This document shows, piece after piece, positions 1 through 6,280 of a stretch of DNA of 39,748 nucleotides. Made by a program: the position numbers and the translations under genes. The DNA is from Thermoplasmata archaeon (lineage in GTDB: Archaea > Thermoplasmatota > Thermoplasmata > Lutacidiplasmatales > UBA184): NCBI GenBank assembly GCA_050011075.1, contig JBEKJT010000001.1:1-39748 (forward strand), read 5' to 3'. A model generated the notes under the pieces. The model did not search any database. It had not been told where the DNA came from and saw nothing but the letters and a program-made list of their open reading frames with translations. Positions within the stretch are counted from its first letter, which is position 1, and every line of letters starts with the position of its first letter.

Positions 1-356
1 AGAGTCTCGAGGGACTCGAGACAAAGCGCACCGATGCATGCCACACAGCAGAACAGCCCCGGGCGGAACATAGTCTCTAGGGACGTAGGCACGTTGAGGA
101 GCCCAAACACGGTTTCGCCGGCGGGGACGCGGGTCCCGCACCGACATCGTACAGAGACGGCAGTGCGGGTCACGAAAATGGATGCTGGCGCCATCGAAGC
201 CTGCGCGACTCGTGCCTGGCCTCAGGTCCAGGGAGACAATTTCACCGTCGATTTCCGTTTAGGGGGTTGGGTTTTTGGAGACGGCCGTCGGCTCTCGGTT
301 ACTGACGAACCACAGACCCAATGACTGGCTCCTGCCGCCGCGTTGCTCGCCAGTCG

Positions 357-1487
357 CTAGGTTTGAGGAATCTTTCCACTCCGCACGAAAAGCATCGGTT
401 CCCGGGGACGCTCAGTTGGAATCCTCGAGCTCCGACGAATCGGTCGCTGCGGGACCACTTGGACCTTTCTCACACGGTCTTCCGCCGCACGGCAGTACTT
501 CTCGCTCTGGTCAAAATGGACGAAGTGGCGATTGTTCGCCTTCGCAACGGCAGCAACCGTGCCGGTTCCTCCGAATGGATCCATGATTGTGTTCCCGCGA
601 TAGGTAAAGAAGAGGACTAACCTTCGGATGAGTTCCTCGGGAAACGTCGCGGGGTGGTTGACCAATCTCCGGGTGTCCGGAGGTATCTCCCATACTCCAT
701 CCGACCAGTCCCGAAACTCCTCCGGAGAGATGTCAATCGTGCTGGGGTCGCCCTCGAGTTTCCAACTTTCCTTGTGGAAGACCTCAATGTACTCCCACGA
801 TGGGATGACGTGTGGGTGGCGAGGACTCTTCCAGCTGCCCCAAGCGGTGCGGGGCGCGCTCATATTCTGTTTTGCCCACAGAATCTCGGCCCGATGAGTG
901 AACTTCGCCGCGCGGATATCCCGTGACAAGTCATGGTGGAGGGGCACGAACTCCGCGATTCCAGTCGGGGCGACTTCGAGAGCAAGTCTCCCGCCGCGCT
1001 TCAGTACGCGGAAGCATTCCTTCCAGACCTCGCTCAACCAGAGGCGGTACTCCGAGTACTGGCGTCTGTCGTCGTAATCCGAGTACTCGATTCCCACGTT
1101 GTACGGCGGCGACGTAATCACCATGTGGACCGAATTGCTCGGCACCTTTCGTATCTCCTCGAGAACGTCGCCGCAAGTGATTCGATCGAGCGACCCGAAC
1201 TTTGTGGAAGTGAGAGTTCGTGACTCGGGCTCGGTAACTATTGGAGACGCTGCAGGGCGCAACACAATAGAGTCATCGTCGATATGCGAGGTGAGTCGCT
1301 TTCCGACATACCAAGAGAGCTCCTCCACCTGGCCCTTGGGCAGGATGGCATAGAAGGAGCCATAGTCCGTCCGATCGCTGTGAGATCCAGTCTTCAGTCG
1401 GGTCTTCCAACTGAGGGTCACCGGCTGCTCGCCGGCGACATAGGGCTTCTGGGGCTCCTTCTCCATCGCGCGCTCCGAGAAGGTCAC
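357..1487 (-). CDS. DNA methyltransferase, beta-class N4-cytosine/N6-adenine type (PF01555-like), with an extra ~110-aa N-terminal AbrB/SpoVT-like domain
   Basis: Catalytic motif IV 'VITSPPYNVG' lies upstream of the AdoMet motif I 'IMDPFGGTGTVAAVA' near the C-terminus, which is the beta-class order. The start is GTG 1487 or ATG 1466 (MEKEPQ). The N-terminal 'FYAILPKGQVEELSWYVGKRLTSHIDDDSIVLRP' resembles a swapped-hairpin AbrB domain. Confidence 0.85.
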   Translation of the reverse strand: MTFSERAMEKEPQKPYVAGEQPVTLSWKTRLKTGSHSDRTDYGSFYAILPKGQVEELSWYVGKRLTSHIDDDSIVLRPAASPIVTEPESRTLTSTKFGSLDRITCGDVLEEIRKVPSNSVHMVITSPPYNVGIEYSDYDDRRQYSEYRLWLSEVWKECFRVLKRGGRLALEVAPTGIAEFVPLHHDLSRDIRAAKFTHRAEILWAKQNMSAPRTAWGSWKSPRHPHVIPSWEYIEVFHKESWKLEGDPSTIDISPEEFRDWSDGVWEIPPDTRRLVNHPATFPEELIRRLVLFFTYRGNTIMDPFGGTGTVAAVAKANNRHFVHFDQSEKYCRAAEDRVRKVQVVPQRPIRRSSRIPTERPREPMLFVRSGKIPQT

Positions 1488-1557
1488 CGGCTATAGCTCT
1501 TGAGGTACCCCAGGCTGAAACGGTTAGAGGTGCCTGCGCTTCACCGAGGGCGGCACC

Positions 1558-2484
1558 TCAAAACTTGCCGGTCGCAAGCGCATCGTCAAGAGCGTCAAGC
1601 AACACGTGGAGGCACCGAAGGCAGAGACCCTCGACGTCTATGCGGAAATACGTGCGGATGCGCCCCTTCTCTGCCTCTAGGCTCTGAGCCGAATAGAGAT
1701 CGAGCCGGCGTGCGCTTGGTTTCCACTTCCTCAGGGACTTGAGCGAGCGGAGCATCAACGCGAGGGTAATCCTGTCCTTCTCACTCAATTCGTGGCTGTG
1801 GAACAGTGGAGCGCGATAGGCGATCTCTCGCTCGGCGAGTTCAACCACCCGGCCGTCTAAGGTTAGGTCTACGCCGGGGGTCTTCCTGACTACGTCTCCA
1901 AGGACCTCCAATACCGTGCGCAGAAGGTTTCCTGCCTCACTTGGATAGAGAAGAACCACGTTCAACGGAACGAGGACTCCGAACCAGATCGACCCAGGGT
2001 GCCTGTATAGAATCACGGAACCGGTGGGCAGATGGGCCTCCGGGAATCGGCGGGTCAGCTCCTGTTCAAGATTTGCCGCCTCTTCTTCTGTGACGTGCTT
2101 CTCGACTCGGGGGGAGACAAGTTCACCGAAATACCGATCACGGAGAGCCGCGGCGTCCTGCTGCAGCTCGGCAGGCCGGTCTCTGTACTTGTCGAACACG
2201 CGAATCGTTTCGCGACCGACGTTCGCCAAGCCGCGTCCCGGCTGCTTCAGCGTGAAGATGTTGCCCAGGTGCTGGGAAATCGCTCCGGGGGTTCGGCCCA
2301 GGAGGTCAGCGAGCTCGCGGACCCAAGGGGCCTCTGGACGGTAATTCTGTGTGTCGGGCGGGCACGCCGCGAGAACTAGGGTGACTTCCTCCGCGGTCCA
2401 AAGCTCGCGGTCCCTGGCGGGCGCTCCGGCCCGCGGACGCCGGGTTGCTCCCTTGGGGTTCCCTGTATCGCCGCCTTCATGCAT
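1558..2484 (-). CDS. Hypothetical protein: N-terminal module as in COG3183-type HNH restriction enzymes, followed by an unrecognised ~180-aa C-terminal domain with no HNH motif
   Basis: 308-aa ORF with an ATG start, in an operon with the methyltransferase. 'LWTAEEVTLVLAA...LLGRTPGAISQHLGNIFTLKQPGRGLANVGRETIRVFDKY' follows the W-T-x-EE / GRTPxA..KLxNF..LDP..G..GLxN pattern I know from the N-termini of HNH 'putative restriction endonucleases'. No HNH or PD-(D/E)xK motif is evident afterwards. Confidence 0.6.
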   Translation of the reverse strand: MHEGGDTGNPKGATRRPRAGAPARDRELWTAEEVTLVLAACPPDTQNYRPEAPWVRELADLLGRTPGAISQHLGNIFTLKQPGRGLANVGRETIRVFDKYRDRPAELQQDAAALRDRYFGELVSPRVEKHVTEEEAANLEQELTRRFPEAHLPTGSVILYRHPGSIWFGVLVPLNVVLLYPSEAGNLLRTVLEVLGDVVRKTPGVDLTLDGRVVELAEREIAYRAPLFHSHELSEKDRITLALMLRSLKSLRKWKPSARRLDLYSAQSLEAEKGRIRTYFRIDVEGLCLRCLHVLLDALDDALATGKF

Positions 2485-2511
2485 CCTGAATCACCTGGCT
2501 ATTTGGACGCC

Positions 2512-3105
2512 TTACCGGCCTGGGTTCTTCTCGACCGAAACCAGCGGGTGCTCCTTCTTCCAGTACTCGAGCATCATTAGTGATAAGACCCTGATTTGAA
2601 ACAGACTCGGCTCACAGCGCAGCCCCGCAGGTTGGACATCGCATCCCCCCGGCCCGGCGGCTCCTGTCGGCACGAGCGAGCCGCAATGCGCGCAGTGCAA
2701 GAACGATTGGACCGGAGCCGCCACTGAAGGCGCCGCTACGTTGACCACAACATGGCCGTAATGATCAGCCATCGGTCGAACCTGCTGCCGAGCTCGAGAG
2801 ATCGCGGAGACCCACTCCTCCACGTCCTTCACCTTGTAAATGTGGCCTTGACCAGCAGCCTCGACCCGTAAGGTCGCACGCCCAATGAGCGGCTTGTCCC
2901 TGTGCAGGTTCGAAATCAGATCAAGCCGGACGTCCAGGAATGTCACAAGCTTCTCTCCTCGAACAAGTTCGGTCACGATTCTCTGTTTCTTCCTTCCTTC
3001 GAACACGAGTCGGACCGACGTCAGGGTCAAGATGCCATTGCGGCCCGAGCCACTTTCCGTTCGCTCGGAAAGAATCGTGGCCTCGCCGGGGCCGAGCAGC
3101 GGCAC
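2512..3105 (-). CDS. PH/GRAM-like (bacterial PH-type) domain protein with a degenerate C-terminal Cys-rich segment
   Basis: 'GEATILSERTESGSGRNGILTLTSVRLVFEG...ATLRVEAAGQGHIYKVKDVEEWVSAI' has the bPH/GRAM pattern, followed by 'CAHCGS...GGC...LRC'. The track ORF starts at GTG 3150, but an in-frame GTG at 3105 lies 2 nt after the RHH stop, so I prefer it. Confidence 0.5.
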   Translation of the reverse strand: MPLLGPGEATILSERTESGSGRNGILTLTSVRLVFEGRKKQRIVTELVRGEKLVTFLDVRLDLISNLHRDKPLIGRATLRVEAAGQGHIYKVKDVEEWVSAISRARQQVRPMADHYGHVVVNVAAPSVAAPVQSFLHCAHCGSLVPTGAAGPGGCDVQPAGLRCEPSLFQIRVLSLMMLEYWKKEHPLVSVEKNPGR

Positions 3106-3107
3106 TG

Positions 3108-3263
3108 TCAGGTGCTCCGGGGTGCAAGCGGCGGGTGCTCCTTCTTCCACCGCTCAAGCTTTTCCCGCACGGCCTGTTCGATAAACGCCTGACGGTTCGA
3201 CCAGCCTTCGCTCTCGGCGACCTCGACAATCTGGTCTATGAGAACTTTCGGCAGACGGACCAT
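3108..3263 (-). CDS. CopG/Arc/MetJ-type ribbon-helix-helix DNA-binding protein (51 aa)
   Basis: 'MVRLPKVLIDQIVEVAESEGWSNRQAFIEQAVREKLE' is a classic RHH beta-strand plus two helices. I use the internal ATG at 3263 of track ORF 3108..3428. It is the first gene of the minus-strand cargo operon. Confidence 0.7.
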   Translation of the reverse strand: MVRLPKVLIDQIVEVAESEGWSNRQAFIEQAVREKLERWKKEHPPLAPRST

Positions 3264-3382
3264 AACGGGAGTCCTCTCAGTGGTCTGCTTCTTCCCGGCC
3301 ACGTATCCGAATGCCCCCCCGGGATAGAATCGTTGATATAACAAGGAATCATATGATATCAATAGAAACCTGGTGCATCTTA
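3264..3382. promoter_or_regulatory. A/T-rich divergent control region with inverted repeat TTGATAT-N16-ATATCAA (3333-3339 / 3356-3362)
   Basis: This is the most A/T-rich stretch of the window. It lies between the divergent RHH operon and the integrase operon, contains TATA-like runs (gatataa, atatgatatcaatag), and has a 7-bp inverted repeat suitable as an RHH operator. Confidence 0.35.
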
Positions 3383-3586
3383 ATGACAGCAATGACAAGG
3401 CGCAGTGCGATCTGGACTGACAGGGCAACTGCTCGCGCGTACGTAGAACTTGCGGCCGAGCTCTATAAAGGCAGGGAGATTGAGCGCGAGTCGGCCGGTG
3501 AGGCTGCCAGATTCCTGCTCAGCAAGTTCCGCGTCGAGCGCTCGTCCGTGGCAGTCTCGAGGGCGACGGCGAGGGCGTCCGCATGA
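3383..3586 (+). CDS. Small hypothetical protein (first gene of the integrase operon; start uncertain)
   Basis: ATG at 3383 (MTAMTRRSAIW...) within track ORF 3311..3586. Its stop overlaps the next start (ATGA at 3583-3586). Confidence 0.4.
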   Translation: MTAMTRRSAIWTDRATARAYVELAAELYKGREIERESAGEAARFLLSKFRVERSSVAVSRATARASA

Positions 3587-3828
3587 CGATCATCGTTCTC
3601 ACGTATCCCGGCGTCCAGGAGTGTGGCACCTGTCACGTTTCATCCAGCCGGTGGAACCGCGTGCCCGGCACGAACCTATGCAAGGGTTGCCACTCATGTC
3701 TCACCGTATTTCCCCCAGCCGTCGGTGAGCGACCCGCGGCCGGCGCGCCCTCGGTAGACGAGGCGCCGACGCGCGGGCTCAGTCCGGCCCCGACCGCCGC
3801 GGATGGGCGGCCCCACCCGGGGGACTGA
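3583..3828 (+). CDS. Small Cys-rich (zinc-ribbon-like) hypothetical protein
   Basis: 'ECGTCH...LCKGCHSC' gives CxxC plus CxxCxxC. It has an ATGA overlap upstream and a TGATG overlap downstream. Confidence 0.4.
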   Translation: MTIIVLTYPGVQECGTCHVSSSRWNRVPGTNLCKGCHSCLTVFPPAVGERPAAGAPSVDEAPTRGLSPAPTAADGRPHPGD

Positions 3829-4007
3829 TGCGAGCGGGTCCCCCGTACGGCCCGTTCGTCACCGCCTCCGATCTCCTAAATGACGAGGTCGCGTCGGTCA
3901 CGGACCCGGTCCGCCTGGTTGGTCGGATTCACCAGATCGAAAACCGCGTGCGCGAGCTTGAGGTCGAACACCGGCACCTTCTCCTCAGCCTCGCGACTCG
4001 GCTGTGA
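3828..4007 (+). CDS. 59-aa hypothetical helical protein, below the ORF-track length cutoff
   Basis: My translation is MRAGPPYGPFVTASDLLNDEVASVTDPVRLVGRIHQIENRVRELEVEHRHLLLSLATRL*. Its ATG shares the A of the preceding TGA, and its TGA overlaps the integrase GTG (GTGA at 4004-4007). Confidence 0.4.
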   Translation: MRAGPPYGPFVTASDLLNDEVASVTDPVRLVGRIHQIENRVRELEVEHRHLLLSLATRL

Positions 4008-5002
4008 CCGACTCAGCGGGGACGTCCGCGGACCGGCATCCCCTGGTCCCGAACGGTCGCTTGGAGGACTTCAGGTCGTGGCAGATCGCGCTCGACCATG
4101 CCCTCAGCACCGCGAACAAGAGCGTGAGGTACCTCCGCTTCCTCGAGAGCAAGGGTCTCGATCTCGCGCCGCCCGCGCTCTCCTACGACCGCGCCCTCGG
4201 GTTCATGGCCGAATGGCGGCAGCGCGGGGTGAAGCCCCGGACTCTAAATTCGTGGGTTCGCGAGCTCAACCTCTGGAGTCGGTTCCTGAATCTCGGTTGG
4301 AAGTTGCCGTACTTCCGCCGTCGGTCGGGGCCACCAATCCAGGTTCCCGACCGCGTCCTCGTCTCGAAACTCCTCGGCCTCGCCTACCCGTCCCCGGCGA
4401 CACAGGCTCGCAACCGCGCCATGATCGCGGTCTTCGCGGACGTCGGAATTCGCAGGAACGAACTCGTCAACCTCCAGCTCTCGGACCGCATCCAGCTCGC
4501 GTCGGGCCCGGGGCTCCGGGTCCGCTTCGGAAAGGGCGAGAACGAGCGCGACGTCCCGCTCGACCTCGAGGTCTCTGAGCTGCTAGAACGGTACGTCTCA
4601 ACCTACCGATCGCACTCCCACGCGACTCGCCTGTTTACGACCCAGGTGGGGCCACTGTCATATGGCTACGTCGGAAAGGTCGTGCAGGAAGCCGGAGCCC
4701 GTCTCGGAGCCCCATGGCTGTCATGCCACAAACTGCGTCACTTCGTCGCCGACGTCACGCTCGATGCCGGGATGCCGGTCTCCTCGGTCGCCGAGATCCT
4801 CGGACACAAGCGATGGGAGACGACCCAGCTGTACCGCCAACGCCGGCTCCAGAAAATCCGCGCTGAGGCGGACTTCCGGTCTACTGCTAAATCACGGTCC
4901 ATCTTCGGAGGGAAAATGGGGCAAATCCGACCGAGACTTGAACGGAAAGCGGGAGCCGGCGACGAATCACGCGCGGAGAGGAGTGGGAGCACGGGGATTT
5001 GA
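4004..5002 (+). CDS. Tyrosine recombinase / phage-type integrase
   Basis: Arg-I context 'VGIRRNELVNLQLSD', 'CHKLRHFVA' (H-x-x-R) and 'LGHKRWETTQLY' (catalytic Tyr), with an N-terminal SAM-like domain. The 3' end overlaps the tRNA-Trp 3' end. Confidence 0.9.
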   Translation: MTDSAGTSADRHPLVPNGRLEDFRSWQIALDHALSTANKSVRYLRFLESKGLDLAPPALSYDRALGFMAEWRQRGVKPRTLNSWVRELNLWSRFLNLGWKLPYFRRRSGPPIQVPDRVLVSKLLGLAYPSPATQARNRAMIAVFADVGIRRNELVNLQLSDRIQLASGPGLRVRFGKGENERDVPLDLEVSELLERYVSTYRSHSHATRLFTTQVGPLSYGYVGKVVQEAGARLGAPWLSCHKLRHFVADVTLDAGMPVSSVAEILGHKRWETTQLYRQRRLQKIRAEADFRSTAKSRSIFGGKMGQIRPRLERKAGAGDESRAERSGSTGI

Positions 5003-5144
5003 ACCCCGATATGCGGGTATCTCCGCGCGCTCCAGTCAATCGTCACGGGGACGCTCGGCGCCCCTCCGCAAACCCGTAATCCCAGGGTGACGAATCGTCA
5101 CCCTGACTGGAGCCCGCTGGTCTGCCAGATTAGCCTATGCTCCC
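4984..5144 (-). tRNA. tRNA-Trp (anticodon CCA) with an 88-nt intron at the canonical 37/38 position
   Basis: Hand fold of the minus strand. The acceptor stem is GGGAGCA/UGCUCCC plus A73. U8, A14, G18G19 and A21 are present. The D stem is GGCU/AGACC-type with one C:A mismatch. The anticodon stem is GCGGG/CCCGC and the spliced loop is CUCCAGA. The variable region is AUAU and the T arm is CGGGG-UUCAAAU-CCCCG. Exons are 5144-5107 and 5018-4984. CCA is not encoded. Confidence 0.8.
5019..5106 (-). ncRNA. tRNA-Trp intron with box C/D guide-RNA architecture (C 5101-5095, D' 5068-5065, C' 5046-5040, D 5025-5022)
   Basis: The intron reads UCAGG-GUGACGA-N26-CGGA-N18-GUGACGA-N14-CGGA-GAU. Both guide regions are complementary to the anticodon arm of the host tRNA. 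A tRNA-Trp intron C/D RNA is established in Haloferax and other Euryarchaeota. Confidence 0.6.
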
Positions 5145-5272
5145 TCCGATCCACCCCGGGCGCGCTCAGAGACATATCCTTTGTCGTTCGACCGAAGGGA
5201 GGCGCGGAGCGCGCCCCCGGCACGATTGGGTCCTCACAAGACTTATGAGAAAGAGTGTTTGTCTCAAATCCA

Positions 5273-6280
5273 ATGTCGTTTAACCCCCCCACGCCGCCCC
5301 CTCGCCGGACGGTGCCGCTGGCCTGGGTCGTGGTGATCGTCCTGGTCTTCGCAGGAGTAGGAGTCGCCCTGACCGCGGTCCTGACCGCGCCCTCATCGGG
5401 CTCGACTCCCGGCGCGACCACGGTGACCGACGACCTCGGCCGGACCGTAGAGGTTCCGAGCGATCCGGCCCGGGTGGCGGTCCTCAGCCCGAGCATCATG
5501 GACAGCATGTACCGACTCGGACTGCGAAGCCACGTCGTCGCGGTGGATTGCTACGCCGCGAGTTTCGGAGGACTGTCCGAGGACTACTCCGCGGACCAGG
5601 TCGCCCTCTGGAACCTCTCCTCTTCGATGTGCGTTCAGGTAGGGCCCACGTTCGTCCCCTCGATGCTGGTCGACCTCGCGCCCGACCTGGTCCTCGCGTC
5701 CACGATCGTATCGATCGCCGACGTCGAGGAGATCACGAGCCAGCTGCACGTACCGGTCGTCATGCTCCAGCCCCCGACGATGAGCGGCATTCTGGTGGAC
5801 GTTTCGTTGATCGGGGTGATCTTCGGGGTCGAGGCAGCCGCAGCTGCTCTGAACGGGCAGCTGTCGACGGAGCTCTACGCGGCCACGAACACTACCGCGA
5901 CGGCTTCGGTGTTCCCGTCCGTCCTGCTCACGTACTCGGTCGACGAGAACGGGTACTGGACCTTTGGTCCCGGAACGTTCGGCCAGTCCCTCCTCGAGCT
6001 CACCGGGGCCGTCGGTCTCGGCGCGACGGCCGGCTTCCCGTACCCTGAGCTCTCGCCCCAGCAGGTGCTCTCCGCCGACCCTACCTGGATCGTCTACGGA
6101 GTTGGCTTCGGTTTGAACGAAAGCACGTACGCCTCGGGTCCGGATTGGTCGAACATTCCCGCCGTACAGCAGGGGAACGTTTCCGGGATCGACTCGAATT
6201 GGATTACGGAGCCGGACCCGACCATGGTCCTTCAGGGGATCCCTACGCTCCTCGCGCTGTTTCACCCACCGACGCCCTGA
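5273..6280 (+). CDS. ABC transporter substrate-binding protein, iron-siderophore/cobalamin (FecB/BtuF, PF01497-like) type, N-terminally membrane anchored
   Basis: 'TVTDDLGRTVEVPSDPARVAVLSPSIMDSMYRLGL...VVAVD' is a typical cluster-A SBP N-lobe. An N-terminal TM segment follows the ATG at 5273. The track ORF starts at GTG 5255. Confidence 0.85.
   Translation: MSFNPPTPPPRRTVPLAWVVVIVLVFAGVGVALTAVLTAPSSGSTPGATTVTDDLGRTVEVPSDPARVAVLSPSIMDSMYRLGLRSHVVAVDCYAASFGGLSEDYSADQVALWNLSSSMCVQVGPTFVPSMLVDLAPDLVLASTIVSIADVEEITSQLHVPVVMLQPPTMSGILVDVSLIGVIFGVEAAAAALNGQLSTELYAATNTTATASVFPSVLLTYSVDENGYWTFGPGTFGQSLLELTGAVGLGATAGFPYPELSPQQVLSADPTWIVYGVGFGLNESTYASGPDWSNIPAVQQGNVSGIDSNWITEPDPTMVLQGIPTLLALFHPPTP

Follow-up and report, generated by a model that had tools for sequence, protein, structure and literature searches.

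A conserved variant of the archaeal tRNA-Trp intron guide in Thermoplasmata, with a predicted C-G pair at position 3b:3n of its internal kink-turn

In Haloferax volcanii, the intron of the tryptophan transfer RNA (tRNA-Trp) guides the formation of Cm34 and Um39, accumulates and persists as a circular RNA, and can be deleted without an effect on growth; a guidance conformer and a competing splicing conformer have been described. Here, we analyzed the tRNA-Trp intron in a stretch of 39,748 nucleotides (nt), hereafter the window, from a Thermoplasmata archaeon (lineage UBA184; GenBank assembly GCA_050011075.1, contig JBEKJT010000001.1, positions 1 to 39,748 of the forward strand). It shares with the H. 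volcanii guide (Clouet d'Orval 2001; Singh 2004) and with Pyrococcus sR50 the host gene tRNA-Trp(CCA), the 37/38 insertion site, and the flanking bulge-helix-bulge (BHB) motif, all of these elements being conserved. Apart from these, it shares with the H. volcanii guide two antisense elements directed at the anticodon arm, the internal order D'-stem-C', and a D' guide whose N+5 nucleotide is position 39. A first-pass annotation had identified the intron as a box C/D guide and pointed to the established H. volcanii case; this identification is supported, and the intron is homologous to the Haloferax/Pyrococcus guide. The locus is a real conserved variant of the known tRNA-Trp intron guide system. 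With moderate confidence, we read it from its sequence as the version of this guide found in a soil and peat lineage of Thermoplasmata, which would combine an internal kink-turn carrying a C-G pair with a degenerate terminal motif.

Position 3b:3n is the variable position that governs kink-turn folding: Watson-Crick pairs, C-G above all, block ion-induced folding, and archaeal box C/D motifs display a strong bias to U:U at 3b:3n together with G:C at 4b:4n. The haloarchaeal tRNA-Trp introns share with the window's intron a C for U at the fifth position of box C' (UGACGA). For five haloarchaeal tRNA-Trp introns, Additional file 4 of Grosjean et al. 2008, which is also our source for the H. volcanii boxes, records C and C' as UGACGA or GGACGA, so GUGACGA, a variant that the first-pass annotation had not seen described, is already present there. 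The haloarchaeal partners are CCGA or CUGA, producing C.C or C.U at 3b:3n, whereas D' and D are both CGGA here, producing a Watson-Crick C-G pair. CGGA as D' or D is absent from that file, and our literature search returned no description of CGGA as a D' or D box, nor of a lineage-wide C-G box C'/D' motif. Further differences from the H. volcanii intron are a shorter length (88 nt versus 103 nt), the absence of a terminal stem, a degenerate box C, and a box D that overlaps the splice helix and lies 4 nt rather than 2 nt after UGGAG, with C32 rather than C34 at N+5.

The tRNA-Trp gene lies on the minus strand and is organized as follows.

5144..4984, minus strand: tRNA-Trp(CCA) gene with intron, from the Rfam tRNA model and direct reading
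5144..5107, minus strand: 5' exon of tRNA-Trp
5106..5019, minus strand: intron of 88 nt at the canonical 37/38 site, from direct reading; its boundaries fit an hBHBh' motif
5018..4984, minus strand: 3' exon of tRNA-Trp; CCA is not encoded

The intron (UCAGGGUGACGAUUCGUCACCCUGGGAUUACGGGUUUGCGGAGGGGCGCCGAGCGUCCCCGUGACGAUUGACUGGAGCGCGCGGAGAU) is inserted one base 3' of the CCA anticodon, and we number it so that intron position i corresponds to window coordinate 5107 - i. In a permissive run, the Rfam tRNA model was matched over its full length (71 of 71 positions; 42.1 bits, E = 1.7e-07), 92 nt being inserted in the anticodon loop. At the gathering threshold, Rfam returned no match on the window to either the tRNA or a C/D family, and ARAGORN neither detected the tRNA-Trp gene nor reported any gene on the window. 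The failure of these standard tools is probably caused by the 88-nt intron, and automated annotation of such genomes may therefore lack tRNA-Trp. Direct reading of the intron also yields the four box-like elements on which the first-pass annotation was built.

5101..5095, minus strand: GUGACGA, first copy, i6-12
5068..5065, minus strand: CGGA, first copy (D'), i39-42
5046..5040, minus strand: GUGACGA, second copy (C'), i61-67
5025..5022, minus strand: CGGA, second copy (D), i82-85

Their layout, GUGACGA-26-CGGA-18-GUGACGA-14-CGGA, was described correctly, with spacings of exactly 26, 18, and 14 nt. With 12 occurrences of GTGACGA on the two strands of the 39.7-kb window together, only about 0.013 copies are expected in 88 nt of one strand, so the two copies in the intron are not an effect of composition. 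Comparison with relatives indicates that three of the four boxes are real conserved elements and that the fourth, the 5' GUGACGA, is a lineage-specific coincidence within a stem.

Relatives were collected by two scans, neither of which fixed any box position. The genome scan fixed only exon bases (GGGCTCCAR, ACCC, and the T-loop), leaving the guides free as well, and the metagenome scan fixed TCAG at intron positions 1-4 and ACTGGAGCG within the D-side guide; each gave at least 120 loci. Among the matches listed, the clade set comprises 150 loci with 139 distinct pre-tRNA cores of the window's architecture, which sample the clade rather than exhaust it. Counts out of 139 include the window, leaving 138 other distinct sequences, and some parses cover 135 sequences. 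Of the 150 loci, 33 come from metagenome-assembled genomes titled "Thermoplasmata archaeon" (including UBA184) and the others from JGI soil and peat contigs. The exons are near-invariant across these loci, while the introns diverge widely, ranging from 84 to 93 nt with ends identical to those of the window's intron. All follow a common plan whose 5' part consists of U, a variable CAG...CUG hairpin, NGAWW, a GGGUCUG-type guide, and CGGA, followed in the 3' part by a variable hairpin, an NRU bulge, GACGA, NUGACUGGAGCGCG, CGGA, and GAG. Over the whole structure, 209 cells were changed on both sides compared with 58 in column shuffles, and none of 500 shuffles reached 209. Pairing held in 95.5% of cells but fell to 41-53% after the 3' partner was slid by 1-3 columns. 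An alignment of related tRNA-Trp introns had been proposed as the check on the boxes: GACGA of C', D', and D are kept, whereas the 5' GUGACGA is found in one of 139 sequences.

The conserved core of the intron is its internal C'/D' motif, made up of three segments.

5065..5068, minus strand: box D' CGGA, i39-42, non-bulged strand of the internal kink-turn; C and A invariant, second-position G in 138/139
5048..5064, minus strand: C-helix of the internal kink-turn, a 7-bp stem-loop, i43-59, GGGGCGC-CGA-GCGUCCC, from covariation
5040..5047, minus strand: 3-nt bulge C60 G61 U62 plus GACGA, with box C' GUGACGA at i61-67; GACGA invariant in 139 sequences

Five of the six C-helix pairs were changed on both sides, and 97.6% of the helix cells are paired. 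In 130 of 135 automatic parses, no nucleotide separates the A of D' from the start of the helix; the remaining five are an outlier, L052, whose D' is CUGA, and four stems interrupted by mismatches in which D' is still CGGA. Of the 3 nt preceding GACGA, the last is U in 134/135 sequences and the middle one is G or A in 135/135. Sheared pairs G63.A42 and A64.G41 are predicted, followed by C65-G40 at 3b:3n and G66-C39 at 4b:4n; the identities are C:G at -1b:-1n in 139/139, C-G at 3b:3n in 138/139, and G-C at 4b:4n in 139/139. At the sequence level, C'/D' thus displays every feature of a standard kink-turn (C-helix, NRU bulge, GA facing GA, C-G, and G-C), and the internal C'/D' kink-turn typical of archaeal C/D guides is present in exact register in about 135 distinct relatives. 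A well-formed standard kink-turn in which C-G replaces U.U at 3b:3n throughout the lineage is therefore a well-supported prediction. In the C'/D' motif, as the first-pass annotation stated, the positions normally held by the second U of box C and by the U of box D lie opposite each other beside the tandem G.A pairs, and both bases have been replaced. The proposed conversion of U-U to C-G in both motifs stands for C'/D' and falls for C/D, where the 5' box is not conserved.

The same position is far less uniform outside the clade. Among the outgroup introns in the matches listed, the C'/D' 3b:3n position is U.U in the majority and A.C in seven loci (CCGA with UGAAGA); further combinations are G-C (L050), A-U (L115), C.U (L047, L052, and L066), C.C (L090 and L099), A.G (L081), and C-G (L093 and L110). 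The A.C loci, with D' CCGA and C' UGAAGA, form a Thermoplasmata group (L021, L023, L033, L044, L067, L083, and L094), while L050 joins UGAGGA with CCGA and L115 joins UGAAGA with CUGA. These sequences indicate that 3b:3n of the internal motif is evolutionarily labile in tRNA-Trp introns. L052 possesses the exons and hairpin plan of the clade and yet pairs CUGA with UGACGA (C.U), and C-G probably arose from U.U stepwise through C.U, at a position that tolerates many combinations. Calling the double change compensatory was hence an overstatement, as relatives and haloarchaea join UGACGA with CUGA or CCGA.

At L052:1230-1340, D' is CUGA, C' is GAUGACGA, and the D' guide has no evident complementarity to positions 38-42; this locus may be an evolutionary intermediate or a decaying copy.

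A natural C-G pair at 3b:3n is known from the ribosomal kink-turn Kt-15 of Haloarcula marismortui, which is unfolded in Mg2+ alone and is bound by L7Ae. Kt-15 shares the C-G pair with the window's motif but differs in being ribosomal, "complex", and outside the methylation guides. By analogy, the C-G kink-turn of the intron should bind L7Ae and, like the U.U form in box C/D, should need protein to fold.

The remainder of the intron is arranged around the splice motif, to which the following segments belong.

5109..5112, minus strand: C32-C35 (CUCC) of the anticodon loop, 5' strand of the 4-bp splice helix H and part of the D-side guide target
5083..5105, minus strand: hairpin h', i2-i24, CAGGGUGAC-GAUUC-GUCACCCUG, which holds the proposed 5' C box (5095..5101)
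5021..5025, minus strand: CGGAG, i82-86; CGGA is the putative box D and GGAG the 3' strand of helix H; invariant

By direct reading, the BHB motif starts with the 5-bp anticodon stem G27-G31/C39-C43 and continues with a 3-nt bulge (A87 U88 A38), helix H, in which C32 U33 C34 C35 pair with G83 G84 A85 G86 (i83-86) in 139/139 sequences, a second 3-nt bulge (A36 G37 U1), and the 9-10-bp hairpin h'. These elements make up a canonical hBHBh' substrate, built like that of H. volcanii pre-tRNA-Trp, in which the two cleavage sites fall where they are expected. Across relatives, six of the nine h' pairs were changed on both sides, and RNAalifold predicted the hairpin independently. Two of the four boxes first proposed overlap this motif, namely the 5' GUGACGA (within h') and the GGA of the 3' CGGA (within helix H).

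Directly after the hairpin lies a short segment that is a candidate for what is left of the original box C.

5077..5082, minus strand: GGAUUA, i25-30, probably a degenerate relic of the ancestral box C

N-G-A follows the hairpin immediately in 99 of 135 sequences, while 131 of 135 have a GA no more than 8 nt beyond it; the G column holds G in 105/139 and the A column A in 121/139, with variable adjoining positions. At this site L118 has GUGAUGA and L086 has GGAUGA, and the homologous position in Thermoplasmatales is the box C UGAUUA. Judging from these alignments, GGAUUA is a probable degenerate form of the ancestral box C, separated from D' by a spacer of only about 7-8 nt. In place of a terminal motif of RUGAUGA and CUGA joined by a terminal stem, only NGAWWA and the splice-helix CGGA are left.

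The tRNA-Trp introns of Thermoplasmatales and Methanomassiliicoccales, the closest by sequence among the matches listed, display the complete form of this motif (C RUGAUUR, D' CUGA, C' UGAUGA, D AUGA). Homologous to the window's intron, they share with it the UCAGG start, the GGGUC-type D' guide, and the UGACUGGA D guide, and their box C UGAUUA corresponds to the post-hairpin GGAUUA of the window. Unlike it, they have canonical 12-nt spacers and U.U at 3b:3n, possess a terminal stem, and place the AUGA of box D 2 nt after the guide. The clade of the window departs from both groups by a hairpin inserted before box C, by the loss of AUGA along with the terminal stem strand, and by C-G in C'/D'.

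In this outgroup, the combination of box C RUGAUUR with box D AUGA gives U-A instead of the canonical G-C at 4b:4n, a clean covariation seen in L010, L028, L030, L046, L054, L078, L089, and the Methanomassiliicoccales loci. It is already visible for Thermoplasma and Picrophilus in the table of Grosjean et al. 2008.

Reversed guide order was observed in other tRNA-Trp introns, in Altiarchaeota (L019, L045, and L075), Undinarchaeota (L026), and Micrarchaeota (L038 and L114). In these, UGGAGCG-CUGA is followed by a hairpin, a GUGACGA or GAUGAAGA box, a GGGUC-type guide, and then AGGA or AAGG, so that the C34 guide lies upstream of the internal D-type box.

Two guide segments accompany the boxes of the window's intron.

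5069..5076, minus strand: D' guide CGGGUUUG, i31-38, complementary to C35-G42 of the spliced tRNA-Trp; N+5 = C39
5026..5039, minus strand: D-side guide UUGACUGGAGCGCG, i68-81, which by direct reading is complementary to C28-G37 together with the first intron bases

The D' guide forms 7-8 bp and retains at least 7 contiguous pairs in the register that places C39 at N+5 in 108 of 135 sequences. The D-side guide is complementary at 13 of its 14 positions, with one G.G mismatch and C32 at N+5. Its segment ACUGGAGCG was preset in the metagenome search, and it is also constant in the 34 clade sequences of the genome scan (including the window), where it was not imposed. Neither the change of U69 to A nor changes of the final intron nucleotide are compensated. 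In the precursor, the helix formed in cis between exon and guide is the minimum free energy (MFE) structure (-82.2 kcal/mol, z = -4.98), and RNAalifold likewise picks it; the cloverleaf with BHB reaches -62.6 kcal/mol as drawn by hand and -68.8 kcal/mol after refolding of the remaining RNA under that constraint.

The 3' CGGA is harder to interpret than D'. Its conservation cannot be credited to a kink-turn, because splicing requires GGAG to base-pair with CUCC, and the guide-target conformer allows pairing of C82 with G27. The distance from CUGGAG/UGGAG to box D is 4 nt in the clade and 7 nt in L052, compared with 2 nt in other archaea, and with 4 nt instead of 2 nt the N+5 nucleotide becomes C32 and not C34. 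Of the pair expected at N+5 from the Haloferax/Pyrococcus type, position 39 fits, while C34 sits at N+7 from the sole available D-like box. The roles of CGGAG as box D and as splice-helix strand are mutually exclusive: a kink at D excludes the BHB helix, so D could be used only before the BHB forms or after excision. As another partner for the 3' D box, C' was tried across the 14-nt guide and rejected, the C-helix being weak.

Taken together, the sequence comparisons favor the view already stated, in which the intron serves as a lineage-specific tRNA-Trp box C/D guide with an intact internal half. L7Ae would bind the C'/D' kink-turn, whose C-G form, by the published folding rules, would need the protein to fold, and Nop5 and fibrillarin would then assemble on the L7Ae-bound kink-turn. 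The D' guide would pair with positions 35-42 of tRNA-Trp and direct 2'-O-methylation of C39, while the downstream guide would pair with positions 28-37 and the first intron bases, opening the anticodon stem. The terminal motif would be derived and degenerate, its ancestral box C surviving only as the post-hairpin GA. If the D box is used at all, this would most plausibly be in the excised circular intron acting in trans, with N+5 at C32 and not C34; circularization would bring CGGA, GAGU, the hairpin, UG, and NGA together in a K-loop-like unit.

Several observations weigh against this view. No match to the Rfam C/D families was obtained within 4700-5400 even at E <= 10. The near-invariance of the exons means that no guide-target covariation could be obtained from the 150 loci, and the N+5 pair of the D' guide is lost in 10 of 135 relatives. 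The terminal C/D motif lacks a terminal stem, the C'-D spacer is 14 nt instead of 12, and the post-hairpin GA mostly lies 10-11 nt from D', compared with about 15 nt canonically (derived from the 12-nt spacer). In L052, the 3' CGGA lies 7 nt after CUGGAG and its distance to the splice site is unchanged, which suggests that the 3' CGGA tracks the splice site rather than the guide.

The alternative that fares best, a serious one although we regard it as rather improbable, assigns methylation to the C'/D' kink-turn and the D' guide (C39) alone. The 3' CGGA would then be purely a splice-helix strand, and the downstream "guide" would only unfold the anticodon stem in cis or stabilize the precursor. 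The overlap of CGGA with the GGAG of helix H, its differing distance from CUGGAG in the clade, L052, and elsewhere, the degenerate box C, the lack of a terminal stem, and the rank of the cis exon-guide helix as MFE structure over both cloverleaf folds are all consistent with this alternative. However, the post-hairpin GA is conserved amid variable neighbors, which points to a surviving kink-turn strand, and C82, which lies outside helix H, is invariant, though this could equally reflect its pairing with G27.

A bolder alternative, which we hold to be unlikely, is that the terminal C/D motif was rebuilt around the splice site, with the D-box GA placed in the BHB helix, the splice hairpin serving as C-helix, and the anticodon stem as third arm. 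A comparable topology is known from the k-junctions of the thiamine pyrophosphate (TPP) riboswitch and DUF-3268, kink-turns with a third helix on the non-bulged strand; those tested are not folded by L7Ae. The strand topology that the precursor may share with a k-junction comprises the post-hairpin GA, the hairpin as C-helix, the 3' CGGA, and the anticodon stem, a likeness of topology only. If this alternative were true, assembly of the methylation ribonucleoprotein (RNP) and recognition by the splicing endonuclease would strictly exclude each other in the manner of a switch, and C32 would take the place of the wobble nucleotide C34 as target of the second guide, owing to the displacement of box D by 2 nt.

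Less likely still is the original proposal of four boxes forming two C-G kink-turns (C at i6-12 with D at i82-85, and C' with D'), to which the hairpin would be incidental. An exact 9-nt duplicate, GUGACGAUU, does occur at i6-14 and i61-69 of the window's intron, and in a circularized intron, CGGA, a 9-nt linker, and UGACGA could form a K-loop. Among the matches listed, the nearest relatives, L184 and L208, retain GUGACGG at the 5' site, and it follows that a single loop-proximal base change made the apparent perfect box of the window. Across the clade, however, GUGACGA at this site is confined to the window, GA is present at i8-9 in 70/139 sequences (50%) and GACG in 11/139 (8%), and the hairpins of several relatives (e.g. 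L022, L079, and L118) lack any GA. The 5' box positions and the 3' strand of the hairpin covary in the manner of a stem, the proposal would entail 26 nt between C and D', and by hand no pairs could be drawn between i1-5 and i86-88 to provide a C-helix or terminal stem closing the proposed C/D pair. The alignment thus identifies the 5' GUGACGA as one strand of the splice hairpin and not as a box, and the claim that the variant motif occurs twice in the intron fails. A different C-helix, between the 3' strand of the hairpin and i86-88, was also tried, gave only C22-G86 and C20-G88, and was rejected.

Finally, it is very improbable that the intron guides no methylation and that its conserved segments are kept for precursor folding or splicing only: the non-canonical spacers, the harmless intron deletion in H. 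volcanii, and a D' guide degenerate in about 7% of relatives would suit this, but C'/D' keeps GACGA and CGGA without variation and has a bulge of exactly 3 nt beside a freely covarying stem, and this conservation is not needed for splicing, because the BHB uses only i1-24 and i83-88.

The region flanking the gene has a different composition from the rest of the window. Its first 5002 nt have a guanine-plus-cytosine content of 59-62%, compared with about 70% in the remainder, and two genes were recorded there.

4004..5002, plus strand: tyrosine-integrase open reading frame (PF00589), extending 19 nt into the 3' end of the tRNA-Trp gene
357..1487, minus strand: N6/N4 DNA methyltransferase open reading frame

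Positions 1-5002 have the appearance of a mobile element that integrated here, with tRNA-Trp serving as the attachment site. A search across the window for a second copy of the tRNA-Trp 3' end, the expected integration repeat, found none, and the far end of the element would therefore lie outside the window.

These findings leave the established picture of tRNA-Trp intron guides unchanged and add to it a lineage-wide natural case, comprising more than 130 distinct sequences, of a predicted guide kink-turn with a Watson-Crick C-G pair at 3b:3n. Since biophysical work has established that 3b:3n decides between self-folding and a need for L7Ae, this series is suited to testing the folding rules in a box C/D context. 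The lineage further suggests how far a guide carried by an intron may lose its terminal half, through erosion or through fusion with the splice motif, and still keep its internal half intact, which would bear on the minimal requirements of the archaeal C/D RNP and on the interplay between methylation and splicing.

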